A stretch of DNA of 64,000 bases. Origin: an uncultured Alphaproteobacteria bacterium (GTDB lineage: Bacteria > Pseudomonadota > Alphaproteobacteria > HIMB59 > GCA-002718135). Shown one piece after another: positions 11,122-31,970 of the stretch (its first letter is position 1; every line of letters begins with the position of its first letter). The DNA lies in the NCBI GenBank assembly GCA_902572735.1, contig CACGGX010000004.1, forward strand, positions 7,743 through 71,742. Direction: 5' to 3'. The notes below the pieces were generated by a model. That model ran no database searches. It was not told where the DNA came from and worked only from the letters and a program-made list of their open reading frames with translations. Position numbers and translations under genes: made by a program.

Positions 11122-11122
11122 G

Positions 11123-14628: not shown

Positions 14629-15630
14629 TTAGAACGGTATATTTTTCTGAGGCCACCCAGAATTTCTACATTTCGTATCTTTATTAGGTGCGGTTTCACA
14701 TAAGATTATAGCATGAGCAAAATGTGCTTGAGAATTATTCAATAACTGATCTGTCAGTTCATCACATCCAGACCAAAGGTCATCACATTTATTAGATTTT
14801 CCAATATTTGCATATTTCACATTTAGATCAGGGATATCTATATTTTCTGACGTAGCATCATCCATATAGTTTCGATAAGGACCAAACTTCATACGTATTT
14901 TATCTGCGCCTGCTAAAGTTTGACCATAGTAACTTGATACCAGTTTCCCATCAATCCATAAATGCAAGAAGCCATCATCTGCCCACTTAGCATTTATTAT
15001 TAAATTTACCCACTTACCTTTTAAGGAAATTTCATTTTGATTAAGATCAAGTGAGAAGGTATTGTAATAATTCTGCCGGCCAGCTTCATTGTTTTCTGTA
15101 AAAAATTTTTCTGAATTAAATGTCCATGAAAACCTATTATTTGAATAATTAAAAGTAGGACCTACACCTACTTCTGATTTACCTTTAATAGGCTTAAAAT
15201 CAAAAATACTTAGATTATGTTTTTTGCTAAAATATGATCCATCTAAAAAATATTCTACGCGGTACCATTTAGTTTGGTTTTTTTTGGCAACTTTTTTAAG
15301 TGGTTCCATTATCTGAAAGCGTTGAGCGTGACCGGGATTACCCCATCTTTCCCAATCCAATTTATGACCTTCATCTGAATATTTAACATTAAATTCTACA
15401 CCTTTTTCTTTGACACCAAATCTATCTTCAAATTCATCAAAAAAAGAAACTAGCCCCTTTTTCTCTTTGATATTTCTTATTGTGAAAACCATATTACCTA
15501 CTAATTCACCTCTCAAAACATATTGATCATAATTTTTCTTTTCTTTATTTTTCATTTTGTCTTCGAATTTATTTCCAAAAGATAAAGAGGGTAGTGATAC
15601 GATTAATAAAAAAATTAGAATGTATTTCAT
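14629..15630 (-). CDS. Secreted concanavalin-like jelly-roll protein (polysaccharide-lyase-like fold), paralog of 8234-9442
   Basis: 333 aa with a signal peptide (LIFLLIVSLPSLSFG). Contains GKWVNLIINAKWADDGFLHLWIDGKLVSSYYGQTL...KFGPYRN, the same signature as 8234-9442. The Cys-rich C-terminus may form disulfides. Confidence 0.5.
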   Translation of the reverse strand: MKYILIFLLIVSLPSLSFGNKFEDKMKNKEKKNYDQYVLRGELVGNMVFTIRNIKEKKGLVSFFDEFEDRFGVKEKGVEFNVKYSDEGHKLDWERWGNPGHAQRFQIMEPLKKVAKKNQTKWYRVEYFLDGSYFSKKHNLSIFDFKPIKGKSEVGVGPTFNYSNNRFSWTFNSEKFFTENNEAGRQNYYNTFSLDLNQNEISLKGKWVNLIINAKWADDGFLHLWIDGKLVSSYYGQTLAGADKIRMKFGPYRNYMDDATSENIDIPDLNVKYANIGKSNKCDDLWSGCDELTDQLLNNSQAHFAHAIILCETAPNKDTKCRNSGWPQKNIPF

Positions 15631-17229: not shown

Positions 17230-18072
17230 TTAATATTTAGGGCTTACACCGTAAATATTTGTATCTTTTTCTCCATCGATACAATGCCATATGAGTAAAA
17301 TTATTGAACCAGCAATTGGTATAAATGAAATTAAAACCCACCAACCAGTTCGACCTATATCATGAAGACGTCGCACAGAAACAGTCAAACTAGGTATAAC
17401 AATAAATAAATAAAAAATATTCGCAAAGATACTTTCATCAACATTGAATTGACCTGTAAGACCCGAATAAAGACCTTCTATAAATGCTAGCAGTACAGAA
17501 CCTACAATAATAAAAAGAAAAAAATACCAATATTCTGATCTTCTAGCTCTTCCTTTAAAGTCAAAATATTTAGATAAACAAATTTTTATTGCTTTAAAAA
17601 ATCCTACTTTTTTATGATGTCTGGCTTGATACACAGGTGGTTCTGTATTTTGCTGATTATTATCCTCATTAGAATTAACATTTATCTCAGGTTCAGATAA
17701 TTTTTCTTCAGAAAATTCAATTTTTTCTTTTTTACTAATTTCACTTTTAGTTGAGAGGACAGAAGAATTATATTGTATATTATCTTCATCATTATTATCA
17801 ATTACTTCATCAGAAATAGTTTCTGATACCTCTTCTATATTTGATACATTTTCCTGAATTATTGGTTCTTCTTTTATTTTTTCTTTTTGAGGTTCCTTTA
17901 CTTCTACAAACTCAGAAAATATTTCTATTTCCCTAGCCTTTTTCCATTCACCTCGTATACTTGTTTTAACCATTGTATCAGGTGTAATCGAACCTCTTTT
18001 AAAAAGATCTATAGCTATCTGATCATTACGAATAACATTTTCAGTACCATTACTATCAATAAAAATTATCAT
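17230..18072 (-). CDS. GYF_2 (DUF4339)-like N-terminal domain, acidic linker, then a DUF805 membrane domain
   Basis: 280 aa. The C-terminus GRARRSEYWYFFLF...SVRRLHDIGRTGWWVLISFIPIAGSIILLIWHCIDGEKDTNIYG is the classic DUF805 (YhaH-like) signature. The N-terminus (DSNGTENVIRNDQIAIDLFKRGSITPDTMVKTSIRGEWKKAREI) looks like the bacterial GYF_2 domain. Confidence 0.7.
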   Translation of the reverse strand: MIIFIDSNGTENVIRNDQIAIDLFKRGSITPDTMVKTSIRGEWKKAREIEIFSEFVEVKEPQKEKIKEEPIIQENVSNIEEVSETISDEVIDNNDEDNIQYNSSVLSTKSEISKKEKIEFSEEKLSEPEINVNSNEDNNQQNTEPPVYQARHHKKVGFFKAIKICLSKYFDFKGRARRSEYWYFFLFIIVGSVLLAFIEGLYSGLTGQFNVDESIFANIFYLFIVIPSLTVSVRRLHDIGRTGWWVLISFIPIAGSIILLIWHCIDGEKDTNIYGVSPKY

Positions 18073-18084
18073 TAATGCTTAAGA

Positions 18085-19326
18085 CTACATTAGATCTAAA
18101 AATGACTCAACTGGTATACTCCAATTTTGAGGTGAGTTTAGATTACAATATGGTTGACAATATTCAGATCCATCATCAAGTATATGACATTCTTCTGGTC
18201 CACCTAATATTTTACAACTTGAAGTAATGCCAATTAATTCTCCAGTCTTGGTATATAATCCTCCGCCTGAATTACCTTTATCAATTGGCGCATCAGTTTC
18301 TATATATTTCAAACCACTTTCTCTTAACCAAGGAGCACTTTCAACCATTCTAGGAGGAGGGTAATTATATTTCATTGTAATTTTACCTTCAGTAGGTTTT
18401 CCTACATATCCTCTAGGATTACCAACTGCATATACAGTATCATTAATATTAATATTATCGTAATAACCTAAATTTGGAAAAGAAATGTTGTTATCACTTC
18501 CAATATCTAAGATACATCTATCTGTTAATATATCTTCTTTTATTATTGGAACATTTCGCAACCATTGACTATTATTAGGGTCACCTGCATTTTCATTAAC
18601 TGGAATTAAATTAATAGATAAATCATCTTCATATCCATGCATTTCATAACATTGTTCTATATTTTCAAAACCAAATGCTGTTGACACTTCTTTTTCTGAA
18701 TAACCTTGATCAATAAAGTGCTCAATGTATTTACATTGATAATTAGTTACAACATGACAGTTTGTGAAAACAATACCATCGCCAATATGAACAGCTGAAC
18801 CACTACCTAATTGAAAATTATCTGATATTGTTGAAAGTTGTACATAAAATGTAGATGATTGTACCTCATCTAACAAATCTCTTACTAAATCTTTTGGCAT
18901 TTTTACTTCTATCGGAGGTGCATCCTCATCTTCATCTTTTCCTGTATCTTCTTGATTTTTTCTTAATACAGGAGGTTCAATAGTCTCAATCTCAATACCT
19001 AGTATTTTATTTACAGCTTTATAAATACATTCATTGTATTTTAGAGCTCCTAACTTTATTTCAAAAACACAAATATCTTCAATGTATTCCTGGTCTTCTT
19101 TATTTGATACTTGCTGCACACTCACAATACCTTGAGCTTCAAGAGCGCTTTTAATTGATTTTACACATTCATTTTTAGTTGAGTATTTCTTTTCTTTGAC
19201 TGATTTTTTACACTCAATATTTATAGCTTCTTTTAAATCAGCTGAATAATAAGCTGCTTCTATCTTCTCTGGTAAGAAAATTGAAGCAAATGATACTAGT
19301 ATAAGAATAGATATAAATTTACTCAT
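18085..19326 (-). CDS. Secreted trypsin-like (S1/PA clan) serine protease with a Cys-rich N-terminal domain
   Basis: 413 aa with a signal peptide (ILILVSFASIFL). The catalytic His context is GSAVHIGDGIVFTNCHVV and the catalytic Ser context is DKGNSGGGLYTKTGELIGITS. Transcribed divergently from the 19432 operon. Confidence 0.75.
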   Translation of the reverse strand: MSKFISILILVSFASIFLPEKIEAAYYSADLKEAINIECKKSVKEKKYSTKNECVKSIKSALEAQGIVSVQQVSNKEDQEYIEDICVFEIKLGALKYNECIYKAVNKILGIEIETIEPPVLRKNQEDTGKDEDEDAPPIEVKMPKDLVRDLLDEVQSSTFYVQLSTISDNFQLGSGSAVHIGDGIVFTNCHVVTNYQCKYIEHFIDQGYSEKEVSTAFGFENIEQCYEMHGYEDDLSINLIPVNENAGDPNNSQWLRNVPIIKEDILTDRCILDIGSDNNISFPNLGYYDNININDTVYAVGNPRGYVGKPTEGKITMKYNYPPPRMVESAPWLRESGLKYIETDAPIDKGNSGGGLYTKTGELIGITSSCKILGGPEECHILDDGSEYCQPYCNLNSPQNWSIPVESFLDLM

Positions 19327-19431: not shown

Positions 19432-20799
19432 ATGAGAATTTTCTTACTTTTATCTATGGTTTTTCTCTCTTTTTCACTTAAGGCTAATGAGTCTTGTGTT
19501 AAAGAAATTTTAGAAGAAAATAATTCCATTAATCTAGCTAAGAATGAGACATCAAGCTCTGAAAAAATTGGGGTAGCTAATTTATTTTATGATCATTCTC
19601 TAAACATGAAAGGTTTTATTAAGCCATCTAATTCACTATTTAAAAATTTCATTACTACCTTAAACTCAAAGATAGCTTTAGTAAGCAACGATCAAAAATT
19701 TTATAAATATACTTACGGTATTAAACCGTTAAATAATTCTGATGTAGGAAAAATTACATCATCAGAATCTTTTTACAAATGTCCTTTAGCAGCTGATCAA
19801 TGTCCTAAGCGAAGAGCTAAATTATCAAAAATATTAAAAGTGGTTGAGAAACAAGAAGACTCTCTAATAATTATTGTAACAGATTTATTTATTGGGATGG
19901 ATGAATTAATAGGCGATGGAATTAATGCAATTCGTAATCCTATAGCTGCTGCATTAGCAAGAGGAGACTCAATTGGCGTTTATGGAATAAAGAGTCAATA
20001 CGAAGGAACAATTACAGGAATATGTTCTGGCAATAATTATAATCTAGCAACTTCTAGACCATTTTATGTATTTACTATCGGTCCAAAAGAAAACGTACTC
20101 GCATTAAAAGAAATAATGGACAAAGATGTTATCTCAAAATTTGGAGAAGAAAATTTTAAATTTAATATTTATACAAATGATATTATTAAAACTCCTTTCA
20201 TTGAAAATTCTTGGCCGTCAAATACATTTGAAATTGGCGGTGGTATATCAACAGTTAATGTATTTGGAGAAGATTTAAAATTATATCAATTTAGTGTTGA
20301 TAAAAAAAGTGATCCTTTAAAAATTAAATTTGATCTTAATAATATTCAAACCCCGTACACTCTACCAGTTAAAGATTTATATGCTGAAGTTGATGTATAC
20401 GTTCAACGTAAAGACTCAGGCACTTGTTCTAATGATTGGCGATCATATGATCCTAATAAACAAAATGTAGTTTATTTTTCAGAACAAAATGGAACAAATG
20501 TATCATTTAATTTATTTGATAAATCTAAAAATGATCGAATAAGCCTTAAAAGAGATAAAAATTATATCTTTAATATTAAATATAGAGCGAAAGGTGTAGG
20601 TGTTACATCAAATGATTATTGGATGAATGAATGGAGTTTTGTTTGTGATGATATTGGAAAATATATTGAAAGTGGAACAACTTTCTTTCCAACATTAAAT
20701 TTAGCCGCTCTTGGATCAAACATGGAAGATGTGCAATCAGAAAACTTTGAGGATCAAGTTATTTCTCAAATGAACTTAGGATTTTATTTAGAGAGATAA
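19432..20799 (+). CDS. Operon gene 1: secreted protein with a degenerate vWA-like core (hypothetical)
   Basis: 455 aa with a signal peptide (MRIFLLLSMVFLSFSLKA). VANLFYDHSLNMKGF resembles a beta-strand plus a degraded MIDAS (DxSxS becomes DHSLN). SLIIIVTDLFIG resembles the vWA hhhhhTDG strand. Assignment is by eye only. Confidence 0.6.
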   Translation: MRIFLLLSMVFLSFSLKANESCVKEILEENNSINLAKNETSSSEKIGVANLFYDHSLNMKGFIKPSNSLFKNFITTLNSKIALVSNDQKFYKYTYGIKPLNNSDVGKITSSESFYKCPLAADQCPKRRAKLSKILKVVEKQEDSLIIIVTDLFIGMDELIGDGINAIRNPIAAALARGDSIGVYGIKSQYEGTITGICSGNNYNLATSRPFYVFTIGPKENVLALKEIMDKDVISKFGEENFKFNIYTNDIIKTPFIENSWPSNTFEIGGGISTVNVFGEDLKLYQFSVDKKSDPLKIKFDLNNIQTPYTLPVKDLYAEVDVYVQRKDSGTCSNDWRSYDPNKQNVVYFSEQNGTNVSFNLFDKSKNDRISLKRDKNYIFNIKYRAKGVGVTSNDYWMNEWSFVCDDIGKYIESGTTFFPTLNLAALGSNMEDVQSENFEDQVISQMNLGFYLER

Positions 20800-20800
20800 T

Positions 20801-21352
20801 ATGCGTCATATATTTTCATTAATTGTAATATCTATTTTCGTAGGACTAATAATTGTACCTGCTTATCTAGTTTCTTTTTTTGATATTGGATTTATTGGTC
20901 GTGGTGATGCAATACAAAATATTATTTTCTACATACTTGACCAAGATCCTAATATGCCAGGTGAAGAACGTGTCTGGAATGCAGAAGACTTACAATTATT
21001 AGGCATTCAACCTTTACTTATTTATTTAACAGCTTTCTGGTTTATTTTATTTATCGTGTGGATAATAATTACTGAATTTTTAAGAATTGATAGGCCTAAT
21101 AAAGCTTTTAAATTTATGTGGATTTGGTTTTTATTTTTAGCCGTTATGTTAGCTTTATCAGGATATATGACTTATTACTTTTTATATAGTCAAAAAGAAG
21201 TTTATCAATATGTAGGGGGACCACAAATAACTTCAATAATATTCTTAACAACAATTTTATCTTTAATTTTATTTTATTTGACAACATTGTTTATTACATC
21301 GAGAGTTAATAGACCAACCGTACCACTTGCTACAATTTTGATGAGGACATAA
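20801..21352 (+). CDS. Operon gene 2: 4-TM integral membrane protein (hypothetical)
   Basis: 183 aa with four hydrophobic helices (about aa 5-25, 70-92, 103-125, 142-165). Starts 1 nt after the gene 1 stop. Its stop overlaps the gene 3 start (TAATG). Confidence 0.65.
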   Translation: MRHIFSLIVISIFVGLIIVPAYLVSFFDIGFIGRGDAIQNIIFYILDQDPNMPGEERVWNAEDLQLLGIQPLLIYLTAFWFILFIVWIIITEFLRIDRPNKAFKFMWIWFLFLAVMLALSGYMTYYFLYSQKEVYQYVGGPQITSIIFLTTILSLILFYLTTLFITSRVNRPTVPLATILMRT

Positions 21353-22857
21353 TGGCTGATTGTTATTTTATAGGTATAGGTGGAACAGGAAGTAAATGTG
21401 TAAATAATTATGTTTATTCATCTGCTGCTGGTCTTGGTCCTGATCGGTTATGGATTGGAATGGTTGATCAAGATGATGCTAATGGTAATGTTGCTGAGTC
21501 CAGATCAAATATAGAAAATTATCAACGTGTAAGACGTATCCTTAGAACACCAGGACTTAGTGATATTAATGATAAAACAGATTTATTTAAAACGAATATT
21601 ACGACTCAAGTAGGTCAAACGTCTTGGTGTCCACTTCCAGGAACAGCACCAACGCTTAAAGATGTCTTCTCTTATGATTTACTTAATAAAGATTTACAAG
21701 ATACCATAGATTGTTTGTATCACCCTCAAGAAGAATTAAATTTAGAACTAGATGAAGGTTTCCGAGCAAGACCAAGTATAGGCGCTGCTGCAATTTTATC
21801 TCGTGTTCAAGAAAATGATCCTTTCTGGGTAAATATATTTAATGCCATTGACTCGGCTAAAGCTGGAACAGAAGTTCGTATCTTCCTTGTTAGTTCTATT
21901 TTTGGAGGAACTGGTGCATCTGGTTTTCCATCAATTGCTAGATTAATTCGATCTGAAATGGATAAAAGAGGTATCAGAGACGGTGTCCATTTGGGTGGCG
22001 CTCTCATGCTTCCTTATTTTAAATTTCCAAAACCAGGTGAAGATGAAATTAAAGAAGTGGCATATGCTGAAAGTTTCTTAGAGCAATCAAGAGGTGCTTT
22101 AGATTATTATCACCGCTTATTTGAAAAAGAACAACGTAAAACTTTTGATCAATTGTATTTAGTTGGTTGGGATCCATTAATTGAATTACCAGTTTTTGAG
22201 AAAGGTGGAAATCTACAACGTAATCCTGCTTTACTTCCAGAATTATTTACTTCTCTTGCGGCTTCACGTTTCTTTATGTCGAATTCAGTAGATAATGGCA
22301 TTTTCCATATAGCTAGAAACGATGCGAATGCCTTTTCATGGGATGATTTTCCTGAAATTAATGATCAACAAAAAATTGTAAAAGATAATTTATCACAAAT
22401 GACAAGAACTGCTCTTGCTTATAGAGAAATTTATTATCCTTACTTGGTAGATCAATGGCGAAAAGTAAAAAATGAAAGTTGGTTTCGAAATACATTATTA
22501 AAGCAAGGTGTAGATTTTAATAATGATGAAACATCATTAAATTTTAATAATCTTTTAGCATACTTTGAAAATTATTTAGACTGGCTTGCTAATATGATTC
22601 ACTTTAGTCAAAATGCTACAGTTCAAGGTATTGATCTTGTGGATGTAAACATGTTTTCACAATATGAAAATAGCCAAGTAACTATAAGTGATAAAGTTAG
22701 AGATCATCAACTAAAGCAATTCAATTCATTAATTAGTGGCGTTAATAGTAGCAGTCTTGCAAAAGTATTCTTAAAAATGAATTATTCTCGTGTTCCAAAA
22801 AATAGAACTGGTATTGGTGCCTTTGTCGGAGCTTTATATGAAAGTTGTAAGAGTTAG
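21352..22857 (+). CDS. Operon gene 3: tubulin/FtsZ-superfamily-like GTPase (divergent, Tubulin_2-like)
   Basis: 501 aa with no TM or signal peptide. The T1-loop-like motif is CYFIGIGGTGSKCV (nt 21373-21396). The T3-like motif is GFRARPSIGAAA, compared with FtsZ GAGANPEVGRKAA. The T4 signature is SSIFGGTGASGFPSIA (nt 21901-21924), compared with tubulin/FtsZ GGGTG[ST]G. A GAGGA Shine-Dalgarno sequence lies 5 nt upstream. Confidence 0.7.
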   Translation: MADCYFIGIGGTGSKCVNNYVYSSAAGLGPDRLWIGMVDQDDANGNVAESRSNIENYQRVRRILRTPGLSDINDKTDLFKTNITTQVGQTSWCPLPGTAPTLKDVFSYDLLNKDLQDTIDCLYHPQEELNLELDEGFRARPSIGAAAILSRVQENDPFWVNIFNAIDSAKAGTEVRIFLVSSIFGGTGASGFPSIARLIRSEMDKRGIRDGVHLGGALMLPYFKFPKPGEDEIKEVAYAESFLEQSRGALDYYHRLFEKEQRKTFDQLYLVGWDPLIELPVFEKGGNLQRNPALLPELFTSLAASRFFMSNSVDNGIFHIARNDANAFSWDDFPEINDQQKIVKDNLSQMTRTALAYREIYYPYLVDQWRKVKNESWFRNTLLKQGVDFNNDETSLNFNNLLAYFENYLDWLANMIHFSQNATVQGIDLVDVNMFSQYENSQVTISDKVRDHQLKQFNSLISGVNSSSLAKVFLKMNYSRVPKNRTGIGAFVGALYESCKS

Positions 22858-22859
22858 AT

Positions 22860-25800
22860 ATGGTTAAAAGTCTTCTCCCACCACTCAATGATGATCATGC
22901 AGTAGCTATCCCAAGTACGCATGGTAAATGGACGGTTGATGAAAATTCTATTCTCGGACGTATCGCTAATGGCTTAAAAGATATTACAATTGAACAAGAA
23001 GTAGAAGATCTTATTTCTATACCTGATGTTTGGGCAAGAGTTGCCGTAGTTAAAAATGCTCTCTTTGATGATAAACATCCATTAAATTATACTGTTAGAG
23101 GCGAGTGGAGAGGTTTACTGGCTCTTTTTGCTTTAATGCCGTATCACGGAAAAAATTTAGAAACAATTCCAGTAAACATTCAATCCTTAAAAAATAATCC
23201 CTATCAAGTTCCGCCAAACGAAGAGGGCGTACTTGGTAATTTTGCTGAAGTGTTAGCAACGATCACACCAGGGACTACTATTGCACAAGGTCAAAATTGG
23301 TCGGAGATTGGAATAATCAAACTTGGTGGTAAGCCAGTAGGTCTTTTAACGCCAAATACTATTGTTTCTCCTGCAAGATATTATTCAGAATCTATTCCAG
23401 GCGGCATTGATTGGTTTCAAACTGGTAAATTTATTGATCCATGTGAAGCAGCGAATATTCAACAGGAACAATTTTTAGTTCTTATACGTTTCCTTGATGA
23501 AATGATTACAGGACTTCAGCAAACAGCTATGGCTGATAAAATAAATTTTGATGGTATTTTAGGTGAACTTACAAGCTTTAAAGAAGATTGTCAAAAACGA
23601 ATTAGTTCTAGTCAATCTAGTGCGGTTGATATTTTAAACTATAAAAAATTTAATGTTGTTCTTCGTGTACCACAACAACCAATTTATACTTTATTACAAA
23701 ATATTTATGAAATAGATACCGGTGGTGTCGCTGCATTTGATACCTTAATTAAAGTTAGACCTGAACTTAATTCAGTTACCAATGGCATTATTTTAATTGA
23801 TGATGAAATACCAAGTGGTATCGGTAAAGCAGCATCAGATGTAAGATTATGGAATACTATTACAGTTGAAACATTAATTGGAGATAAACAAGCAAAAAAA
23901 CGTATCCAAAAAGAAGTATCAGATGCTGGTTATCTTTTCTTACATCCAGAAGAATTATTTACAGAAAAATTATGTTTACCTGCGAGCTCTGAAAAGATTA
24001 TGAATCATAATGATCTTTTAGCTAAACCGTATTTGTTACCTTTTAATCCAATTGTTTTATCTTTTATGACGGCATCGCAGTTAAGAAATAATTTTGATAT
24101 CAAAGATAATGGCACAAGTATTAATGTATCTCTTCGTTTAGAACTTCAAAATCATATGGGTCAAAAAACTGAATACGTAATTCGAAAAGAATATTTACAA
24201 GCAAATATAGAAAATAGACTTGAATTACCATTATCAGCTCATATTTGGCCTAACTTTGTGCATCCAGCATGGAATCAATATTTTATGATGTATGCATGTA
24301 ACTTGCAGGCATCAATTGCTCTTCGATCAGTATTTTCCATTCAAGGACTCTCAAAAGAATTGGATAATTTTGAAAGTTCGGATCAAAAAATTAAAGCTCT
24401 CAATCAATTAAAAGATTTTACTGTAAAAATGTCTAATAGGTTACCTTTACAAGAAACTACTAACGTTGTTGAATTACATTTGACTGAACATCCTCCAGAG
24501 GCGCTAGTTTGTGATGCAAGTATGATTATGGACCTGCATGAATTCATACCAAGTAATGAACGTTCTGCGATGGGAATTATTCTAGCTGGAAAACCAGAAG
24601 AGGTAATGGTTAACAATGATGCATTAAGTTTTGGAATAGATTTTGGTACAACAAATACCTGTGCTTATATGCGTGTTAATGAAGAAATTCCAAAAGAAAT
24701 AAATTTTGAGAATAGATTATATTCACCATTTTCACCAAGTGATGACAAAGAATATTTAAATTACCAATTACGAGAATTTGTTCCTGAAAGAAATGTAGTA
24801 TTACCTTTCCAAACAATTTCAAGAGATAGAAATCTAGGAAAGAAACAAGGAGATATTTCATTTCCTTTACCTTTATGGAGTGCCTTTATATATTACGTTG
24901 GTGACATGAGGGATGGTTTAGATGATATTTTAAACCCAGTTCAAAGACCGCTTCATTTCAATCTTAAATGGTCTAAAGCAGAAGCAGATAGAGAGCGAAT
25001 AGAAATTTATCTAGCTCAAGTTGCTCTACAATGTATCGCGGAGGGATTGGCTAGAGGAGCAGATTTAGATAAAATAAATTGGAGTTTTTCTTATCCTGAA
25101 GCTTTTACGCCAACTCAATTGCAAAATTTTAGACGTCTATTTAATAGTGGATTACGAAAAGCTTTACAGCCATTTAATAGCAATGGTAATTTAATTCAAA
25201 CAGAGCAAAAAAGTGAAAGTTTATCAAGTGCACTTTATTTTTCATCTTTTAAAAACGCTCCATTCACCGAAAGTGTTGTAACTATTGATATTGGCGGTGG
25301 AACTTCTGATATTTCTATTTGGCAAAATCTCAATTTATTATGGAGAAGTTCAGTAACAATAGCCGGTCAACATATTCTTATAAATTATTTAAATAAAAAT
25401 CCTAATTTAATAGAGTCTCTTTCATCAAATGATAGAGTAATGCAAGAAGCGTACGAACAGTTAACAAATATTAAATCTAAAGGAGACCCGACTGCCCTGA
25501 GGAATGCTATTGAAGTCATAGTAAATTCAAAAAATTTTGCTGAAGCAATTAATTCACGTTTCCATATTGTAGATGGTCAAGATAATGGAAGAAATTTAAG
25601 ACTTATAGCTGAATTAGCGCTAGCAGGGATTCTTTTTTATGCCGGTCAAATGGTTAATCATTTAACAAATCAAGGTTTATACGACCCAAGTAAAACAAAA
25701 CAATTTAGTATTTGTCTCGGTGGACGAGCAAGTCTTTTATATAAAGTATTATTTAGTGACTCAGAAGATCGAAATGGCTTATGTCGTTTATTTGCAGCAG

Positions 25801-26315
25801 CATCAAATAATACTGTTGATATTGATAAAGTTAACTTTGTATTCACTGATAAACCAAAACATGAAGTTGCTCATGGCTTGTTGGTAGATCAAAGAGGAAT
25901 AGCTAATTTAGATACTTCTAAGCGTTGTTATGATGTTTTATTAGGTGAAGATATTGATGTAGGTGGCGAAGTAACAAAATATAACCAATCAGCAAGTGAT
26001 TTAGATCTAGATAAGGAATGGCGCGCAATAAGCTTAACAAATATGAAGCAATTTGCAGAAATGTTGAACGCAAATACAGGAATAGTTTTTGAAGTATCAA
26101 GACAAGTTGAGAATATGATTGTATCTAAAATAAATACTAACCTTGTGACAGCTCAAGAAGAGTTACAAGATGCTAAAAAAGATGGTCTTGATTATTTATC
26201 AGATGATATGAAGGGAGAGACATCAATTATAGAACCTCCATTCATTGTAGCAATAAAAGAAATACTGGAAAGAGTTTCGAAAAAAGAAATCAATCTTCTA
26301 TCGAAAAAAATTTAA
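22860..26315 (+). CDS. Operon gene 4: 1151-aa protein with an unknown ~580-aa N-terminal region fused to an Hsp70/actin-fold (ASKHA) ATPase domain
   Basis: Ordered ASKHA motifs are present. Phosphate-1 is FGIDFGTTNTCAY (aa 591-603, nt 24630-24668), compared with DnaK GIDLGTTNS. Connect-1 is SESLSSALYF (aa 785-794), compared with NEPTAAALAY. Phosphate-2 is VVTIDIGGGTSDISIW (aa 806-821; DIGGGTSD core at nt 25287-25310), compared with DLGGGTFDVS. The adenosine motif is FSICLGGRASLL (aa 949-960), compared with LVGGSTRIP. Confidence 0.7.
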   Translation: MVKSLLPPLNDDHAVAIPSTHGKWTVDENSILGRIANGLKDITIEQEVEDLISIPDVWARVAVVKNALFDDKHPLNYTVRGEWRGLLALFALMPYHGKNLETIPVNIQSLKNNPYQVPPNEEGVLGNFAEVLATITPGTTIAQGQNWSEIGIIKLGGKPVGLLTPNTIVSPARYYSESIPGGIDWFQTGKFIDPCEAANIQQEQFLVLIRFLDEMITGLQQTAMADKINFDGILGELTSFKEDCQKRISSSQSSAVDILNYKKFNVVLRVPQQPIYTLLQNIYEIDTGGVAAFDTLIKVRPELNSVTNGIILIDDEIPSGIGKAASDVRLWNTITVETLIGDKQAKKRIQKEVSDAGYLFLHPEELFTEKLCLPASSEKIMNHNDLLAKPYLLPFNPIVLSFMTASQLRNNFDIKDNGTSINVSLRLELQNHMGQKTEYVIRKEYLQANIENRLELPLSAHIWPNFVHPAWNQYFMMYACNLQASIALRSVFSIQGLSKELDNFESSDQKIKALNQLKDFTVKMSNRLPLQETTNVVELHLTEHPPEALVCDASMIMDLHEFIPSNERSAMGIILAGKPEEVMVNNDALSFGIDFGTTNTCAYMRVNEEIPKEINFENRLYSPFSPSDDKEYLNYQLREFVPERNVVLPFQTISRDRNLGKKQGDISFPLPLWSAFIYYVGDMRDGLDDILNPVQRPLHFNLKWSKAEADRERIEIYLAQVALQCIAEGLARGADLDKINWSFSYPEAFTPTQLQNFRRLFNSGLRKALQPFNSNGNLIQTEQKSESLSSALYFSSFKNAPFTESVVTIDIGGGTSDISIWQNLNLLWRSSVTIAGQHILINYLNKNPNLIESLSSNDRVMQEAYEQLTNIKSKGDPTALRNAIEVIVNSKNFAEAINSRFHIVDGQDNGRNLRLIAELALAGILFYAGQMVNHLTNQGLYDPSKTKQFSICLGGRASLLYKVLFSDSEDRNGLCRLFAAASNNTVDIDKVNFVFTDKPKHEVAHGLLVDQRGIANLDTSKRCYDVLLGEDIDVGGEVTKYNQSASDLDLDKEWRAISLTNMKQFAEMLNANTGIVFEVSRQVENMIVSKINTNLVTAQEELQDAKKDGLDYLSDDMKGETSIIEPPFIVAIKEILERVSKKEINLLSKKI

Positions 26316-28610
26316 GTGATTAAAAAAATTATCTTTTTTTTAATATTAATAGTCTTTTCAAATAATTTATTTGCATCAGAACAGAAGAGTATACGTATAG
26401 ATGTACAAAAATTTAAATGCGATTATAGAGGAGAAATTCCTCCAGAAGAAATATTTCAAAGATTTAATATTATTACTGAAGCAGAAAAAGAGGCTAATAA
26501 AAACTATATTATTGCTGAATTAAAAAAAAATAATTCAGCTCATGAATTATTTTGTAATAATCAACCTATAGCAATAGAATTTAATTATTCAATATTAGAA
26601 AATCTTCCCGTACCTATCAAAAAAGATCTTCCTGTGCCAAAAAATGAAGAAAGTGAAAATAAACAACAGTCATTAATAATAAATAATGATGATCAAACAA
26701 ATGAAGATGATTTAGAAGAAAAGCCGTTAACTGAAGGAGAAAAGAAAAGGCAAGAAAAACAAAAACAGAAAGAAAAACAAATAAAAGATGAAGAGGAAAA
26801 ACTAGATAAAGGTAAAGTTGTTAAATCTTTTATTGAAAATCAAAAAGATAAAGATGAGAACAAAATATTATTTTCAACTTCTATTGAAGAACTATCTAAA
26901 AAATTTGCTCAATATAAAGAAAATTATGAGGAGAGTGACAACTTTAACAGAACTCAATTAGAAGCATTAAAGACTGATTTTCAATCTATTAAAAATATTA
27001 TTGCAAATAATTATATGGGTTTAATAAATACCTATGATCAAATTAAATTATTTTGTAATGAATTAGATGACTTCAAATTTAAAGAAAATAAATCTGGTGG
27101 AAAAGAATTAAAAAATAATTGTAAAACTATAACAGAAGATTGGACTTCGCTTAATTGGATTAAAGTTGGTAAGCAAAATTTTATTGATTATTTTAATTTA
27201 GAAATCTATCAAATTGATTCTGAAATTAAAATTTATATAGAAAATATAGTTAGCAAAATTGAGAATATTAAAAAAGCTGAAGAAAAAAGAAAAGAAGATG
27301 AAAGAAAAGCTGATGAAAAAAGAAAAGAAGATGAAAGAAAAGCTGAAGAAAAAAGGAAAGAAGAAGAAAGACAAAAAAAATTAAAAGAAGCTGAAGAAAA
27401 AAAGAAAAAAGAAGAAGCTGAAAAGAAAAAAGAAGCTGAACGTCAAAAGAAATTAGAACAAAAAAAGAAAGAAGAAGAAGAAAAGAAAAAAGAAGCTGAA
27501 CGTCAAAAGGAATTAAAACAAATAGAAAAAGATAAAAAAGATGAATATGAAAATATTATAGTATCAATTGAAAAAATTGAAATTCAAGAATTAAACGAAA
27601 ATTTTGAAAAATTAGCCGAAAGTTATGAAGAATTATCTAATAGAGATTCATTAAGTGTAAATATTGATAAAGATTTAGATAATCTTAATGAACAAAGAGC
27701 TGAATTAGTTAGCGATGGTATTTTTGAAACAATTAAAGAAGTTAAAGATAATATAAGTATAAATGAATTACTTGATGAAGATAAAAAAGAAGATCTTTTA
27801 GAAAATCTTAAAAATAATGTTGAAAGTAAAATAGAAAAAAGAAAAAAGGAAATTGATAATTATATTAAGATTATTGAAGGTAAAATTAATTCTCAAGATC
27901 AAGCATTTAGATCTAAAATTGATGAATTAGAAAATCGAAATACTCTTTATTTATTCATTATTATTGGAACTATAGTAATATTAGGTGGTGCTATAATTTA
28001 TTTAATTCTTCGAAGATCAAAAGATGATGTACCATCTCAAACATCATCCATACGTAATACGAGTATACTTCAGCAAGAAATTGATGAATTAAAACAAATT
28101 ATACGTAACAGTCAACAACAATCAAATGTTCAACAAACACCTAATGTTACACAACAACAACCTCAAGAAGAGGTAAGACAACCAACGGAACAAGAATTAT
28201 TTGCACAAAAATTAAATGATTTAGGGCATGATTATTTAGATGCAATTACAGATCCAAATAAAATAGAAGGATTTAAAGAAAAATGGCAAGCGATTGGACT
28301 AGATAGAGAAAGCCGAGTAGGGGCATCAACAGTTACTACTCTTAAAAAAGATAATAGACCGTTTGAGAGATGTAATTTCTGGGCTGTGCCAATTAGAAAT
28401 AACTATAGAATATTTGGTGGAAGAATATTAAGAACGAATTCTGTTGCTTTAACTGCAGATGATGGCCGTATGGCAAGAGATCTCTTAACGGGCATATTTG
28501 ATATTGAATACGGAACAAGCTTTCAAATACGACAGCAAGGTGTAGCTGTAATGAAAAATCAAATATTTGAGATTACTACTAAAGGTAAAATTACTATTCC
28601 GAAAACCTAA
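26316..28610 (+). CDS. Operon gene 5: bitopic envelope protein (signal peptide, extracytoplasmic domain, E/K/R-rich helical rod, TM, cytoplasmic C-terminal domain)
   Basis: 764 aa. The GTG start directly abuts the gene 4 stop and yields a proper signal peptide (MIKKIIFFLILIVFSNNLFA|SEQ). The ER/K block runs AEEKRKEDERKADEKRKEDERKAEEKRKEEERQKKLKEAEEKKKKEEAEKKKEAERQKKLEQKKKEEEEKKKEAERQKELKQ. The TM is LYLFIIIGTIVILGGAIIYLIL followed by RRSK (about nt 27945-28010). A Q-rich linker precedes a ~140-aa C-terminal domain homologous to that of gene 6. Confidence 0.7.
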   Translation: MIKKIIFFLILIVFSNNLFASEQKSIRIDVQKFKCDYRGEIPPEEIFQRFNIITEAEKEANKNYIIAELKKNNSAHELFCNNQPIAIEFNYSILENLPVPIKKDLPVPKNEESENKQQSLIINNDDQTNEDDLEEKPLTEGEKKRQEKQKQKEKQIKDEEEKLDKGKVVKSFIENQKDKDENKILFSTSIEELSKKFAQYKENYEESDNFNRTQLEALKTDFQSIKNIIANNYMGLINTYDQIKLFCNELDDFKFKENKSGGKELKNNCKTITEDWTSLNWIKVGKQNFIDYFNLEIYQIDSEIKIYIENIVSKIENIKKAEEKRKEDERKADEKRKEDERKAEEKRKEEERQKKLKEAEEKKKKEEAEKKKEAERQKKLEQKKKEEEEKKKEAERQKELKQIEKDKKDEYENIIVSIEKIEIQELNENFEKLAESYEELSNRDSLSVNIDKDLDNLNEQRAELVSDGIFETIKEVKDNISINELLDEDKKEDLLENLKNNVESKIEKRKKEIDNYIKIIEGKINSQDQAFRSKIDELENRNTLYLFIIIGTIVILGGAIIYLILRRSKDDVPSQTSSIRNTSILQQEIDELKQIIRNSQQQSNVQQTPNVTQQQPQEEVRQPTEQELFAQKLNDLGHDYLDAITDPNKIEGFKEKWQAIGLDRESRVGASTVTTLKKDNRPFERCNFWAVPIRNNYRIFGGRILRTNSVALTADDGRMARDLLTGIFDIEYGTSFQIRQQGVAVMKNQIFEITTKGKITIPKT
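27276..27374 (+). repeat. In-frame 33-nt tandem repeat x3 inside gene 5
   Basis: The units are 27276-27308, 27309-27341 and 27342-27374. Each follows gctgaagaaaaaagaaaagaagatgaaagaaaa with a few substitutions. They encode AEEKRKEDERK / ADEKRKEDERK / AEEKRKEEERQ. Confidence 0.85.
27421..27509 (+). repeat. Direct repeat: two identical 29-nt copies spaced 60 nt apart, inside gene 5
   Basis: aaaagaaaaaagaagctgaacgtcaaaag occurs at 27421-27449 and again at 27481-27509, encoding KKKEAERQK both times. Confidence 0.85.
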
Positions 28611-30790
28611 TGTTAAAAAAAAATATTTATTTTATTTTAATAGTTATTTTTTTAATTAGTAAAAATTTATTTGCCTATAACATTCCAAATAAAAAAAACT
28701 CTTCTATTATTGATCGATTTTTTAAAGATGGTGAATATGTCCTTATAGAAGATGAAAAATTTATTCCTTTCTTAGATTTACTTAATACTAAGAATCTAAA
28801 ATTATTAGAATCATTTCCATATAAAATTTATATAAAACTAGAAGAAGAAAGATATGATTATAAAGTTGCTTATTTTTTTAATAACTATGATGACTTATCA
28901 CTTAATTATATAAGAGTTCATTGGGCGCCAACTATTGGAAATAATAAATATAACTATTCTTTTGATTGTATCAAACCAAATAAAAATGATGTTTGTAATG
29001 GTTTTAATAATCCAATTAAAGGTGAGCAAGATTTAAAAATTCTTGATAAAGTATTTTTTAAAGGTAATTATTATTCTATACCATATAAAGATATAGAAGA
29101 TAATAAATACTGTCTTTTTTCAAGAAAATATAAGCTTACAGCAAATAATGAGAAGGTTAATTACACTATTGATTATTGGACATGTTCTAATAACATAAAT
29201 TCTAAAAATATATCTAATGCAGTTCATTTTGAGCTACTTAATTCAATTAAAATTGACAACAACATAACAATTAAACAAATTAATGAACTTGTTCCATATG
29301 TTATTGATAATGTAAAAAAAGGAATAAATAATAAAAATAAAGCTGAAGAGAAAAAAAAGAAAGAGGAAGAAGCTAAAAAGAAAGCTGAAGAGAGAAAAAA
29401 GAAAGAGGAAGAAGCTAAAAAGTTAGCTGAAGAGGAAAAAAAGGAAGCTGAACGTCAAAAAAAATTAGAAGAAAAAAAGAAAGAACTTGAAAAGAAAAGA
29501 AAAGAAGAGGAAGAAAAAAGAAGAATTGAAGAAGAATTAAAAAGACAAGCAGAAGAAAAGAAAAGAAAACAGGAAGAAGAAAGAAAAAAAAGAGAAGCTG
29601 AAGAAAAAAGAAAAAAAGAATTACAAAAAAATATTCAAGATTCTAAATCAGCATTATCAGCTTCTAAAGCTAATCAAAATAAATTAATTACAGAAACAAA
29701 AAATTTAGAATTACAATTAAGAGAAATCAAATCAGCAAATACAATAAATAAGATTAATATAGTTAAACAAAAAACTGATAATATATATGATAATATACAA
29801 TCTAACCTAAAATCATTTAATACGAAGTATAAAAAAGTAGAAAAACTATTCAAAAATAATCCTGAAACAGAATTAAATTTAATCTTTAATGAATTTAAAT
29901 TATTAAATACACAGTTTAAAAATCAAAGAAAAGTAATAGAAGAATTATACTCTGATATTGAAAACAATTATTTATCTAAAAAATCTAAATTTGAAAAAGA
30001 ATTAAGAGATAAAGAATTAACTGATGCCTTTATGCGTTCAGATCAAGCTTATATATATACCTATGTGCCAATCGGAGTAGCCATTGTACTATTATTAATA
30101 CTTATCTGGAGATGGAACTCATCAGGAAGACAAATTGCTTATTTGAATAATAAAATAAGAGATCTAGAAAAAAATAACGAGAAATCAAGTTCACCAACAA
30201 CTCAGGTATCGAAGTCTTTTGATAAAATTGAGAAACAAGAGGAAACTATCACTACATCTATAAAAACTCCTGAAAAAAGTAATATTAATGAAGAAGAAGA
30301 AGAAGAAGAAGAAGTAGAAAATAAAAATATAGAAGAGCCGATAAGCAATGAAATCAAAAAATTGAATAACTTGATTGATGATAAAACGTTTATGGATAAA
30401 TATCAAAATGCTGTTAGTGATTTAAATAGCTTAAGATCTTTTACGGACGAATTTAAAGTTAAAGGTTTAGAAAGGTTTTCATCACAAAGAGTAGAAGAGG
30501 GCGTTGAATTAGAAATCAGTCAGCGTATTGTTGATAAAGCGATGTTCTGGTTAATTGAACACCCGCAAACATTTGAATTACTAATATTACCTGGAAGAGA
30601 TTTATGGTCCCGATCTCGCTTATTATTACAAGATACAAGTCGCTTTGGTTATTTAAACTTTAATGGTATTTTTGATTTATCAGAAGGTGAAGAATTTAAA
30701 TTAACAAATTTTGCTATCGTATCAGTGACAGATAAGAAAAAATATAAAATTGAACAAAAAGGAGAATTAATACTTCCTAAATCTAATTAG
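28610..30790 (+). CDS. Operon gene 6: paralog of gene 5 (signal peptide, extracytoplasmic domain, E/K/R helical rod, TM, poly-Glu linker, shared cytoplasmic C-terminal domain)
   Basis: 726 aa. The ATG overlaps the gene 5 stop (TAATG). The signal peptide is MLKKNIYFILIVIFLISKNLFA|YN. The ER/K block runs KAEEKKKKEEEAKKKAEERKKKEEEAKKLAEEEKKEAERQKKLEEKKKELEKKRKEEEEKRRIEEELKRQAEEKKRKQEEERKKREAEEKRKKELQ. The TM is YVPIGVAIVLLLILIW followed by RW (about nt 30044-30109). The C-terminal domain aligns with gene 5: FW......GR.L...S..L..D..R.....GIFD...G..F......KG...PK. Confidence 0.7.
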   Translation: MLKKNIYFILIVIFLISKNLFAYNIPNKKNSSIIDRFFKDGEYVLIEDEKFIPFLDLLNTKNLKLLESFPYKIYIKLEEERYDYKVAYFFNNYDDLSLNYIRVHWAPTIGNNKYNYSFDCIKPNKNDVCNGFNNPIKGEQDLKILDKVFFKGNYYSIPYKDIEDNKYCLFSRKYKLTANNEKVNYTIDYWTCSNNINSKNISNAVHFELLNSIKIDNNITIKQINELVPYVIDNVKKGINNKNKAEEKKKKEEEAKKKAEERKKKEEEAKKLAEEEKKEAERQKKLEEKKKELEKKRKEEEEKRRIEEELKRQAEEKKRKQEEERKKREAEEKRKKELQKNIQDSKSALSASKANQNKLITETKNLELQLREIKSANTINKINIVKQKTDNIYDNIQSNLKSFNTKYKKVEKLFKNNPETELNLIFNEFKLLNTQFKNQRKVIEELYSDIENNYLSKKSKFEKELRDKELTDAFMRSDQAYIYTYVPIGVAIVLLLILIWRWNSSGRQIAYLNNKIRDLEKNNEKSSSPTTQVSKSFDKIEKQEETITTSIKTPEKSNINEEEEEEEEVENKNIEEPISNEIKKLNNLIDDKTFMDKYQNAVSDLNSLRSFTDEFKVKGLERFSSQRVEEGVELEISQRIVDKAMFWLIEHPQTFELLILPGRDLWSRSRLLLQDTSRFGYLNFNGIFDLSEGEEFKLTNFAIVSVTDKKKYKIEQKGELILPKSN
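29342..29425 (+). repeat. In-frame 42-nt tandem repeat x2 (plus a diverged third start) inside gene 6
   Basis: Unit 29342-29383 is gctgaagagaaaaaaaagaaagaggaagaagctaaaaagaaa. Unit 29384-29425 is gctgaagagagaaaaaagaaagaggaagaagctaaaaagtta. They differ at only 3 positions and encode AEEKKKKEEEAKKK / AEERKKKEEEAKKL. Confidence 0.85.
30290..30313 (+). repeat. (GAA)8 trinucleotide microsatellite inside gene 6 (poly-Glu linker)
   Basis: Eight consecutive gaa codons encode EEEEEEEE, between the TM segment and the C-terminal domain. Confidence 0.9.
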
Positions 30791-31970
30791 CATTTAATAT
30801 AAAACTAAGCTCTTTTCTTTTATCTTCACTATCAAGCGCAGAGATCGTAATATCATTTGCTCCTGGCTCAACGTCAAATAAAATTATTTCAAAATTACCA
30901 GCACTATCTAAATCAGCTACATCATCGTTAACTAGCACTTCAATAGCTTTAATTTTTTTCATGTTAATAGTACCTTGAACAGTTACAATTCCTGATCCAT
31001 CAATATTACAAGGATCATTTGATTTTAAAATTTTGCATGGCTCATAAACATTAATTGCATTTGGCCCAGACACAACTGGTTGCACCACAGCCACATCATC
31101 TAAACTATTAATACATGAATTAAGCGCATAACCAATCAAACCTTCTTCAGTAATAATTAATGCCCAGATACCATCAGTGATACTGAGTAAACGAACTTTT
31201 TGATCTTTATTTAGAGTTTTATATTTTTTTGCATTATCAGAGTTAACTGAGCGTAAATTGACAGCATCACATGAAATTTTATCTGTCATCTCTATTGGTG
31301 AAACATTAATTTTTGGTGGTTTCTTTTTAAGTGTATCAAGTGTTTTTTTAAGAAGATCTATGTCATCATTTAATTTTGCTACTTCCTCTTCTTTTTGTTT
31401 TTGTAGATTATCTATATCCGTTTCTAAATCTTTTATACTTTGATTGCGGTTTTTTACATCAGTATTAGTATCTGATAAATCTGATTGTAATTTTTTTAAT
31501 TTTTTTTCAAGATCAGCAAATTCTTCCTTTAAATTATTAAATTGAACATCTCTAACAGTAAGACTAGCAACATAATGCCAATTCTGTTCAGTATTTGCTT
31601 TGAAAATAGTGGCATCTATTTTTCCCTTACTAATATTGCCTTCAATAGTATTATTTTTATTTGATTTATTTGTTGCAGGTCCTTTAAAGAAATTTCCGTT
31701 AAGCTTCATATCTGCAAATATATAATTTAATCTTGGTGCAAAAATAGTAATTGTTTGGTCACTTTCATTGTGCTCTACAATTAAAAGTCCAATTTTATCA
31801 TTACCTTTAAAAAGTCCTATAAGAGGAAGACTTCTAGCAAATTTATCAAGTTTACTATCTTCTTTACATACTCCTCTACATTCTATTCCTTGATAAGTTC
31901 CAGAGAAATCAAAAGCATATAAATTACCTGAAAAGAAAATAGTGCATAAAATTATTAACAATTTTTTCAT
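30783..31970 (-). CDS. Secreted coiled-coil protein with a bacterial SH3-like domain and a C-terminal Ig/beta-sandwich-like region
   Basis: 395 aa with a signal peptide (LLIILCTIFFSGNLYA). The coiled coil is FADLEKKLKKLQSDLSDTNTDVKNRNQSIKDLETDIDNLQKQKEEEVAKLNDDIDLLKKTLDTLKK. The SH3b-like segment is AVNLRSVNSDNAKKYKTLNKDQKVRLLSITDGIWALIITEEGLIGYA. Its 3' end overlaps operon gene 6 by 8 nt, in convergent orientation. Confidence 0.6.
   Translation of the reverse strand: MKKLLIILCTIFFSGNLYAFDFSGTYQGIECRGVCKEDSKLDKFARSLPLIGLFKGNDKIGLLIVEHNESDQTITIFAPRLNYIFADMKLNGNFFKGPATNKSNKNNTIEGNISKGKIDATIFKANTEQNWHYVASLTVRDVQFNNLKEEFADLEKKLKKLQSDLSDTNTDVKNRNQSIKDLETDIDNLQKQKEEEVAKLNDDIDLLKKTLDTLKKKPPKINVSPIEMTDKISCDAVNLRSVNSDNAKKYKTLNKDQKVRLLSITDGIWALIITEEGLIGYALNSCINSLDDVAVVQPVVSGPNAINVYEPCKILKSNDPCNIDGSGIVTVQGTINMKKIKAIEVLVNDDVADLDSAGNFEIILFDVEPGANDITISALDSEDKRKELSFILNAN

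Follow-up and report, generated by a model that had tools for sequence, protein, structure and literature searches.

A large unannotated family of Hsp70-like ATPases encoded next to a tubulin-like GTPase in a bacterial envelope cassette

Introduction

The question raised by the locus described here is what a protein of 1151 amino acids (aa), half of which appears to be an ATPase domain of the Hsp70 type, might do when its gene immediately follows that of a tubulin-like GTPase. The locus is found in a stretch of 64,000 nucleotides (nt), hereafter the window, from an uncultured alphaproteobacterium of the HIMB59 lineage (GenBank assembly GCA_902572735.1, contig CACGGX010000004.1), and the gene in question, g4, is the fourth of six co-directional genes, g1 to g6; coordinates are those of the window unless a related locus is named. 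A first-pass annotation, made from the sequence alone, had read g4 as an unfamiliar N-terminal region joined to an Hsp70/actin-fold ATPase and had suggested that, with the tubulin-like product of g3, it forms a two-NTPase machine. Tubulin-fold and Hsp70/actin-fold NTPases are two of the main engines of cellular organisation, and a pairing of both folds that is conserved across phyla outside cell division was not previously described.

The analysis reported here leads to the prediction that g4 encodes a cytoplasmic, catalytically competent Hsp70-type ATPase carrying a family-specific N-terminal module. Genes g1 to g4 form a conserved core cassette for a secreted protein with vWA-like motifs, a protein with four transmembrane (TM) helices, the tubulin-like GTPase and the Hsp70-like ATPase. 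The identity and architecture of g4, as well as its pairing with the tubulin-like gene, are held with high confidence; what the proteins do together is discussed below with correspondingly greater caution.

The g4 gene and its family

The g4 gene is one uninterrupted ATG-to-stop open reading frame (ORF; 22860..26315, + strand) of 1151 codons for amino acids. The TAG stop codon of g3 ends at 22857 and the ATG of g4 is at 22860, which leaves the 2 nt gap of the first-pass annotation, and g3 does pass the Pfam threshold for Tubulin_2; an AAGAG stretch lies approximately 7 nt 5′ of the g4 start codon. The four motifs of the ASKHA fold that had been recognized, namely GIDFGTTNT (residues 592–600), SESLSSAL (785–792), DIGGGTSD (810–817) and LGGRAS (953–958), are found in this order and at these residues both in the translation and in the lists of conserved columns of the family.

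A first homologue search yielded 45 full-length relatives of 1034–1376 aa, among them proteins of Ca. Pelagibacter sp. FZCC0015 and of metagenome-assembled genomes of Acidobacteria, which can be aligned from residue 1 through the C-terminal end and which, when annotated, are named ‘hypothetical’; a second search, by alignment profile, gave nothing beyond this list. The profile of the N-terminal region alone was then used in an exhaustive hidden Markov model search of the representative proteins of clusters built at 50% identity, and it retrieved 1549 representatives at E ≤ 1e-3 and 681 at E ≤ 1e-30, a notable size for a family that has no name. Among the 150 matches listed, nearly all are approximately 1050–1200 aa long and carry the module at residues 1 to approximately 560. 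A look-up of the clusters returned no family name and solely ‘hypothetical protein’ annotations, the family is without a Pfam, NCBIfam or PADLOC model, a scan of viral contigs gave no relatives, and neither the g4 family nor the g1–g4 cassette was found described in the literature.

A reading frame of this length might result from two genes fused artificially during assembly or annotation, or its motifs might be there by chance. Independent full-length homologues of the identical architecture number in the hundreds and stem from many sources, the alignment runs from end to end, and the model of the full-length protein described below has a predicted template modelling score (pTM) of 0.76, which together rule out both explanations and leave them with a negligible probability. 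As the relatives listed share length and layout almost throughout, the fusion of two genes that the first-pass annotation had considered is excluded, and g4 is a single genuine gene within a large unannotated protein family.

The Hsp70-type ATPase domain

An AlphaFold2 (AF2) model of full-length g4, built on 29 homologues, has a mean predicted local distance difference test (pLDDT) value of 86.4, with low confidence confined to residues 1–58. When it was compared with the PDB by Foldseek, the best 50 of the 608 matches at E ≤ 0.001 were all nucleotide-binding domains (NBDs) of Hsp70 proteins (DnaK, BiP, Ssb, Hsc70) or MreB, the best values being E 1.1e-8, a probability of 1.00 and a template modelling score of up to 0.59 (normalized to the target NBD); the part of g4 that these top matches cover is the C-terminal half. 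The complete ASKHA core proposed initially is thus confirmed by AF2 and Foldseek, and it can be placed, also on the basis of alignment to DnaK and of conservation, at residues ~588–1010 (24621..25889, +). Within it the translation locates phosphate-1 at 24633–24659, connect-1 at 25212–25235, phosphate-2 at 25287–25310 and the adenosine motif at 25716–25733, all on the + strand.

Sequence comparison is consistent with the structural one. In hhalign alignments to E. coli DnaK, g4 residues 744–825 are paired with DnaK residues 141–209, so that SYPEAF, SESLSSAL and DIGGGTSDISI of g4 face TVPAYF, NEPTAAAL and DLGGGTFDISI of DnaK, respectively. With a profile of 182 full-length members, residues 588–1066 of g4 align with residues 2–476 of DnaK (E 4.6e-5, probability 68%), in an alignment that has a single sequence as template and a later part that is unreliable. 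In these 182 members D594, G596, K703, E786, D810, G812, D817, G955, K1000, E1002 and G1006 are at least 99% conserved and, because the catalytic residues are among them, the ATPase site is predicted to be functional. Judged by eye, K703 is the probable equivalent of the catalytic Lys70 of DnaK, and PKHEVAxGLL that of NPDEAVAIGAA at the end of the DnaK NBD.

Sequence models of known families do not capture this domain. Neither whole g4 nor its C-terminal half matches Pfam HSP70 (PF00012) up to E ≤ 10, and what is found lies below threshold and in the phosphate-2 region only: Pfam EutA and MreB with E values of ~3e-4, MreB_Mbl with 19.9–22.7 bits (cut-off 27), FtsA with 17.8 bits (31.8) and NCBIfam mreB with 20.6 bits (365), the NCBIfam ftsA match being also well under its cut-off. 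A phmmer search of the PDB with g4 gave E 0.23 and the family profile E 1.4e-4 against the same database (MreB), and no PilM-family match was returned. Kinship with SrfB-type large proteins, named at first among those to compare, is rejected, as Pfam SrfB matched neither half of g4 at E ≤ 10 nor any of 18 N-terminal regions of the family at E ≤ 1.

The distance between phosphate-1 and connect-1, approximately 185 aa, had been regarded as unusually long. It is long with respect to actin or MreB. In E. coli DnaK approximately 156 aa separate phosphate-1 (residues 6–14) from connect-1 (170–177), so that g4 exceeds it by only ~30 aa and its spacing is normal for subdomain IB of the Hsp70 type. Of the original label of an Hsp70/actin-fold ATPase, the fold stands and the generic reference to actin is to be dropped: the core is specifically Hsp70-like rather than generically actin-like, and it lies outside the chaperone family proper.

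The Hsp70-type motifs and fold, along with the intact catalytic residues, would also suit a canonical folding chaperone in the form of a diverged DnaK, HscA or HscC. Besides the missing Pfam HSP70 match, this assignment has to face the fact that only ~140 aa follow the NBD. This C-terminal tail (25890..26315, +, including the stop codon) is modelled by AF2 as short β strands followed by helices, and it contains residues conserved among the 182 members, namely G1029, E1030, P1126 and F1128. A ‘VLLGEDIDVGG’ segment within it resembles, by eye, the start of the β part of an Hsp70 substrate-binding domain (SBD), and some Foldseek alignments to full-length DnaK extend over ~730 columns, but with a root mean square deviation above 20 Å; the tail does not have the length of a complete SBD, and none of full size can be recognized in g4, in agreement with the first reading of the sequence. 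Furthermore, the DnaJ and GrpE families of Pfam are absent both from the cassette of the window and from the 11 related loci introduced below, a 580-aa module precedes the NBD, and the gene is strictly linked to that of a tubulin-like protein. By these points the chaperone assignment is largely refuted, and we consider it very improbable. What g4 presents is an Hsp70 domain without the parts that make a chaperone, combined with a large module of no known relatives.

The N-terminal module

The N-terminal module of g4 (aa 1–580; 22860..24599, +) is conserved and has no detectable relatives. Folded by itself it reaches a pLDDT of 81.6, and it is confidently folded from approximately residue 59 on. 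The preceding residues 1–58 are modelled with low confidence, yet they carry the conserved motifs LLPPL, GxW and IPDVWAR, a combination that would fit a partner-binding peptide. Conserved throughout the family in this module are P55, W58, W83, P137, P165, W185, P194, P394, P457, P464 and G572.

The first-pass annotation had recognized no motifs in this region, and none of the searches changes that view. No Pfam match was obtained at E ≤ 1 for any of 18 members, nor any NCBIfam match, and Foldseek found nothing significant in the PDB (best E 8.6e-3, probability 0.35) or in BFVD with the module as one multi-domain query, a format in which matches of single sub-domains could be masked. The non-significant structural matches are noise of the Ig-like or GFP-like kind, the Ig-like ones falling on the β-rich residues 412–575. 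The 580-aa module may represent a new fold.

The conserved cassette

The gene context was compared in 12 loci, namely the window and 11 related loci (L001, L002, L003 and L005–L012). In all of them, from Ca. Pelagibacter to Acidobacteria and at 23–36% identity, the gene order g1-g2-g3-g4 is maintained and the gene of the g4 family directly follows a Tubulin_2 gene for a protein of 486–532 aa. Homology of g1–g4 was confirmed by blastp for L001, L002, L003, L005 and L006. In the window the six ORFs g1–g6 extend from 19432 to 30790 and are operon-like, being co-directional and either no more than 2 nt apart or overlapping; scans for promoter and terminator patterns performed no better than on shuffled sequence in this AT-rich DNA (28% G + C).

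The g3 gene (21352..22857, +) encodes a short FtsZl1/Tubulin_2 GTPase of 501 aa (Pfam PF13809, E 7.4e-9, 35.8 bits versus a cut-off of 27). The GTP-binding signatures GiGGxGxK and SiFGGTGAxGxP are conserved in 14 homologues, and g3 and 13 aligned homologues are 486–572 aa long. In L003 (958–6410) a second, divergent pair of a tubulin-like and a g4-like gene is found by blastp directly upstream of g1–g4, and L011 (727–6353) has the same layout, in which the tubulin-like copy was aligned and the remainder is assigned from the layout; in these second pairs the tubulin-like proteins are of 560–572 aa and the g4-like ones of 1256–1302 aa. From these two cases the g3–g4 pair appears to duplicate as a unit. 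The two-NTPase machine of the first-pass annotation is therefore retained as far as the pair is concerned, which is adjacent in every locus and duplicated in two, and has to be amended in that the pair does not stand alone and is the cytoplasmic part of a larger envelope-spanning cassette.

The first two genes point to the envelope. The g1 product (19432..20799, +) is a secreted protein or lipoprotein of ~455 aa, as judged from the signal peptide or lipobox in the alignment, and it exhibits vWA-like motifs: D-x-S-x-[SN]-M-x-G-F and VTDLF, conserved in its family, are typical of a vWA metal ion-dependent adhesion site (MIDAS). Genes of the g1 type encode proteins of ~445–510 aa in most loci, the copy of L012 being cut by the contig end, and a homologue is present at the equivalent position in the loci that were aligned or compared by blastp. 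Searches of Pfam and of PDB sequences gave no match for g1, and hhalign with two true VWA proteins aligned the MIDAS motif alone, with a probability below 2%. The g2 gene (20801..21352, +) encodes a small polytopic inner-membrane protein of 183 aa with approximately four hydrophobic helices in its translation. Each of the 12 loci has a protein of 154–186 aa in this place, and blastp reveals a weak similarity of g2 to its counterparts in L001 and L003.

Partners across the envelope

Beyond g4 the gene content depends on the lineage. Five of the 12 (L002, L005, L006, L007 and L012) carry stator-type genes downstream. In L002, L005, L006 and L007 these encode a long-tailed MotA/ExbB-domain protein of 583–706 aa and, after it, a full-length MotB/OmpA protein, and in L012 a 748-aa gene product is followed by an OmpA gene. 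According to PADLOC the MotA-domain protein is ZorA-like in three of the former four loci (E values down to 1.3e-7), with coiled-coil matches only in L002, and the MotB/OmpA protein is ZorB-like in all four (E down to 1e-17).

In the window, L001, L009 and L010 the place of the stator genes is taken by those of one or two bitopic TolA-like coiled-coil proteins. The window has two of them, g5 (26316..28610, +; weak TolA match, signal-like N-terminus, coiled coil and one TM helix) and its paralogue of the same layout, g6 (28610..30790, +; TolA-like match, E 9.8e-8). In both, a K/E-rich coiled coil of great length and a single TM helix are combined with a conserved C-terminal domain (~190 aa) that has no family assignment and is predicted to lie on the opposite side of the membrane from the coiled coil. 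The C-terminal domain of g5 is homologous to that of g6 (E 9e-12) and to that of the protein encoded next after g4 in Ca. Pelagibacter FZCC0015 (E 1.6e-21), and the domains of g5, g6 and the L001 protein form one homologous set; genes matching g6 in size come after g5 in L009 and L010.

Two further genes accompany loci of the window type. A secreted trypsin-like serine peptidase (18085..19326, −; Pfam Trypsin_2, E 1.2e-15, signal-like hydrophobic N-terminus) is transcribed divergently from the cassette, and L001, L009 and L010 each have a trypsin-like gene with this placement and orientation. Convergent with the cassette is the gene of a secreted coiled-coil protein with an SH3_3 domain (30783..31970, −; sub-threshold Pfam SH3_3 and coiled-coil matches), which occupies the same position in L009 and L010 and whose product shows weak blastp similarity to the protein encoded alongside the trypsin-like peptidase in L001, where peptidase- and SH3-related genes are both upstream of the cassette. 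The peptidase and the SH3_3 protein are each a probable accessory component of the window-type cassette.

The window-type loci are apparently related to SAR11. SAR11 bacteria are among the most abundant marine bacteria and have a streamlined genome. An 11-kb cassette is a notable investment for SAR11-related genomes of this sort.

The ASKHA-fold proteins PilM of type IV pili and GspL of type II secretion dock on bitopic proteins, PilN/PilO and GspM, respectively. By the same logic g4 could dock g5 and g6 in a trans-envelope assembly or secretion platform. The paralogous, bitopic and coiled-coil nature of g5 and g6, with the conserved domain predicted across the membrane from the coiled coil, agrees with such a role, as do the several secreted proteins encoded around the cassette. 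Against it, the Pfam lists contain no secretin, pilin, PilB/GspE-type ATPase or other secretion marker in any locus, and genes of the g5/g6 type are restricted to window-type loci, the others carrying stator-like genes. On balance a platform of this kind seems improbable, although less so than a chaperone.

Proposed mechanism and role

The explanation that we prefer, and that taken as a whole we consider slightly more probable than not, is a g3–g4 module that works with trans-envelope partners in an accessory envelope role. In this scheme the two NTPases would form a module on the inner membrane face, in which the Hsp70-like domain would be an ATP-gated clamp or adaptor, with ATP binding and hydrolysis as the conformational switch, and the N-terminal module would be the specificity or adaptor part that controls the assembly state or the membrane attachment of g3. 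The module would be coupled to the trans-envelope partners so as to exchange signals through membrane proteins, these being the cytoplasmic C-terminal domains of the TolA-like g5 and g6 in the window, and the long cytoplasmic tail of a ZorA-like/MotB-like proton-driven stator in other phyla. That g4 acts as an adaptor or regulator is proposed tentatively, with less assurance than the scheme as a whole. Its control of a g3 polymer is speculative because the T6–H7 elements of polymerization were not identified in FtsZl1 proteins (Makarova & Koonin 2010, PMC2875224).

With regard to the biological role, the analogy with Zorya, in which signals reach cytoplasmic NTPases, would suggest envelope surveillance or conflict. 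We rank this possibility first, before membrane remodelling and, third, the secretion or assembly platform, while regarding it as a somewhat weaker proposal than the adaptor mechanism. Its background is the accessory nature of the cassette, which is suggested by the chromosomal neighbours that differ among loci and from mobile or defence genes nearby: in L001 the cassette lies between GatB and sox genes, in L010 among the housekeeping genes of GreA and of cytochrome bc1, and in the window and L009 it adjoins genes of a SIR2 protein and a tyrosine recombinase. These neighbourhoods hint at an accessory or defence-island character.

Several observations weigh against the preferred explanation, including its surveillance or conflict role. 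No PADLOC defence model matches g1–g6, and in the window cassette neither Pfam nor PADLOC detects an OmpA/MotB-, MotA/ExbB- or ZorAB-like gene. Defence-like neighbours occur in few loci only and are hints, not statistics. The vWA identity of g1 is not confirmed by Pfam, PDB or hhalign. Finally, many of the components are secreted (the peptidase, g1, the SH3 protein and a transglutaminase encoded just beyond the cassette), which fits envelope remodelling equally well, and the T6–H7 gap noted above also counts here.

Remodelling, the reading to which the FtsZ/FtsA analogy of the first-pass annotation belongs, would mean that g3 polymerizes on the membrane and g4 tethers it or co-polymerizes with it, the pair deforming or organizing the envelope, e.g. 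for the formation of vesicles or of a specialized envelope structure, and that the cassette has no part in conflict. The invariable adjacency of the Tubulin_2 and ASKHA genes speaks in its favour, and so do the membrane-bound or periplasmic partners (g1, g2, g5, g6, peptidase, SH3 protein and transglutaminase), the housekeeping neighbours in L010, and the membrane remodelling already predicted for FtsZl1 operons (PMC2875224). It is made rather unlikely by the nature of g4, which is Hsp70-like and not FtsA-, MreB- or ParM-like, its sub-threshold Pfam matches to such proteins being limited to the surroundings of phosphate-2. Filament formation is not known for Hsp70 NBDs. In addition, the T6–H7 elements were not identified in FtsZl1 proteins, the distribution of the cassette is apparently patchy and accessory, and the stators found with it are ZorAB-like and not division genes.

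Returning to the g3–g4 module with trans-envelope partners, it may be extended to the proposal that g1–g4 define an unrecognized, widespread class of trans-envelope machines, in which a tubulin/Hsp70 pair, as engine or cytoplasmic output, would be driven or triggered by ZorAB-like proton stators or, in genomes of the SAR11 type, by TolA-like proteins, and would serve Zorya-like immunity or envelope integrity without nucleases. We regard this extension as doubtful, a little more so than surveillance itself. If true, it would provide a new Zorya-like immune or envelope-integrity system with a tubulin/Hsp70 pair replacing the nucleases.

Neighbouring genes

Around the window cassette, the secreted transglutaminase-core protein mentioned above is encoded just beyond it at 32036–33499 (+; Pfam E 4.6e-18), as also observed in L009, and in L011 a Transglut_core3 gene follows at a distance of a few genes. 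The SIR2-family gene (35039–35773, −) adjoins that of the tyrosine recombinase (Phage_integrase; 35924–36982, +), a pair also present in L009 and a possible boundary of a genomic island, although a tRNA gene was not detected anywhere in the window. On the other side, a DUF805 membrane protein with a GYF_2-like N-terminus (17230–18072, −) adjoins the peptidase gene, and DUF805 is also found beside the cassette in L001 and L009. Farther upstream, two genes of polysaccharide-lyase families (8234–9442, +, and 14629–15630, −) flank an efflux operon of the HlyD/ABC/MacB type (9547–13019). Downstream, a gene for an adenylate/guanylate cyclase fused to TPR repeats (40561–42390, +) is near that of an MscS-type channel with a cyclic-nucleotide-binding domain (43165–44841, +).

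As to the related loci, L005 (18911–23181) has McrBC-like genes (AAA_5 and DUF2357/PDDEXK_7) and a transposase fragment a few genes downstream of the cassette, L007 (20664–22451) a gene for a TIR/β-helix protein in a similar place, and L008 an integrase fragment near the cassette. Three distant loci have an SNase gene, immediately upstream of g1 in L002 (241–900) and L005 (5759–6334) and in the vicinity of the cassette in L001 (3978–4511); the window has none.

Comparison with known systems

With the NBD of Hsp70/DnaK, g4 shares the two-lobed ASKHA fold, the signatures of the Hsp70 type, as exemplified by GIDFGTTNT versus GIDLGTTNS of DnaK, and the conserved catalytic residues. It differs from it in lacking a Pfam HSP70 match, a full SBD or lid and a J-protein or GrpE partner, and in having the N-terminal module and an obligatory genomic pairing with a tubulin-like GTPase. 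The occurrence of an ASKHA protein beside a tubulin-superfamily GTPase recalls FtsA and FtsZ, and that of an ASKHA protein beside bitopic membrane proteins recalls PilM and GspL, with a plausible tether or adaptor logic; in the absence of a division or pilus context at the cassette, both are analogies only, and the comparison with FtsA made in the first-pass annotation is not supported.

Hsp70-like NBDs and tubulin homologues have been encountered outside housekeeping functions, in the company of vWA proteins and membrane components. The DO-GTPase/GAP1 conflict systems described by Kaur et al. (2020, PMC7159879) include tubulin and HSP70 components, which in GAP1-N2 systems are non-overlapping themes, and CnuD of the CoCoNuT systems (PMC11090510), which are of the McrBC type, contains Hsp70-like NBD/SBD units with degenerate ATPase motifs. 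In contrast, the motifs of g4 are intact and the cassette is without a DO-GTPase, GAP1, FNIII-repeat or McrBC component, neither P-loop GTPase nor GAP1 families being detected by Pfam in the window cassette or among the listed genes of the related loci.

The likeness to Zorya (PMC11946911, PMC11890865) lies in the four related loci that end in MotA-domain and MotB/ZorB-like proteins, and in the presence of a stator beside soluble cytoplasmic NTPases. PADLOC returned only ZorA- and ZorB-like matches for the related loci, with no ZorC, ZorD, ZorE, ZorF or ZorG, and no Zor match for the window cassette. Tubulin and Hsp70 are not mentioned in the two Zorya structure papers, and no system combining tubulin, Hsp70 and ZorAB/MotAB, nor a SAR11 example, was found described in the literature.

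The cassette belongs with the FtsZl1 operons. Tubulin_2 corresponds to the FtsZ-like family of Makarova & Koonin (2010, PMC2875224), whose FtsZl1 operons carry vWA, MotA/ExbB, OmpA/MotB and GTPase genes. The members considered there are of 763–1208 aa, and the typical one, of ~1000 aa, combines a coiled coil with a C-terminal domain of helices. The supplement of the same paper lists a Deinococcus operon for proteins of 421–478 aa and 108 aa, an FtsZl1 of 1070 aa, MotA/TolQ/ExbB and OmpA, cyanobacterial vWA-FtsZl1-B7-MotB operons and one operon of Magnetospirillum whose last member, a ‘DnaK’ gene of 1626 aa (amb2961), is not discussed in the paper. The cassette resembles the Deinococcus layout in that its Tubulin_2 GTPase is preceded by a secreted protein with vWA-like motifs and a small hypothetical protein, and related loci end in MotA/ExbB-like and OmpA/MotB-like genes. 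It differs in the length of g3, which at ~500 aa is without the coiled coil and the C-terminal helical domain of the ~1000-aa type, in having no ‘new GTPase’ or protein kinase gene, and in the separate Hsp70-like protein of ~1100 aa after the GTPase, a component undescribed in PMC2875224. The cassette is thus an FtsZl1-class envelope system that includes an ATPase of the Hsp70 superfamily, and the ZorAB-like stators of its counterparts in other phyla tie the membrane remodelling predicted in 2010 to the recently solved mechanism of Zorya, providing a testable hypothesis for both.

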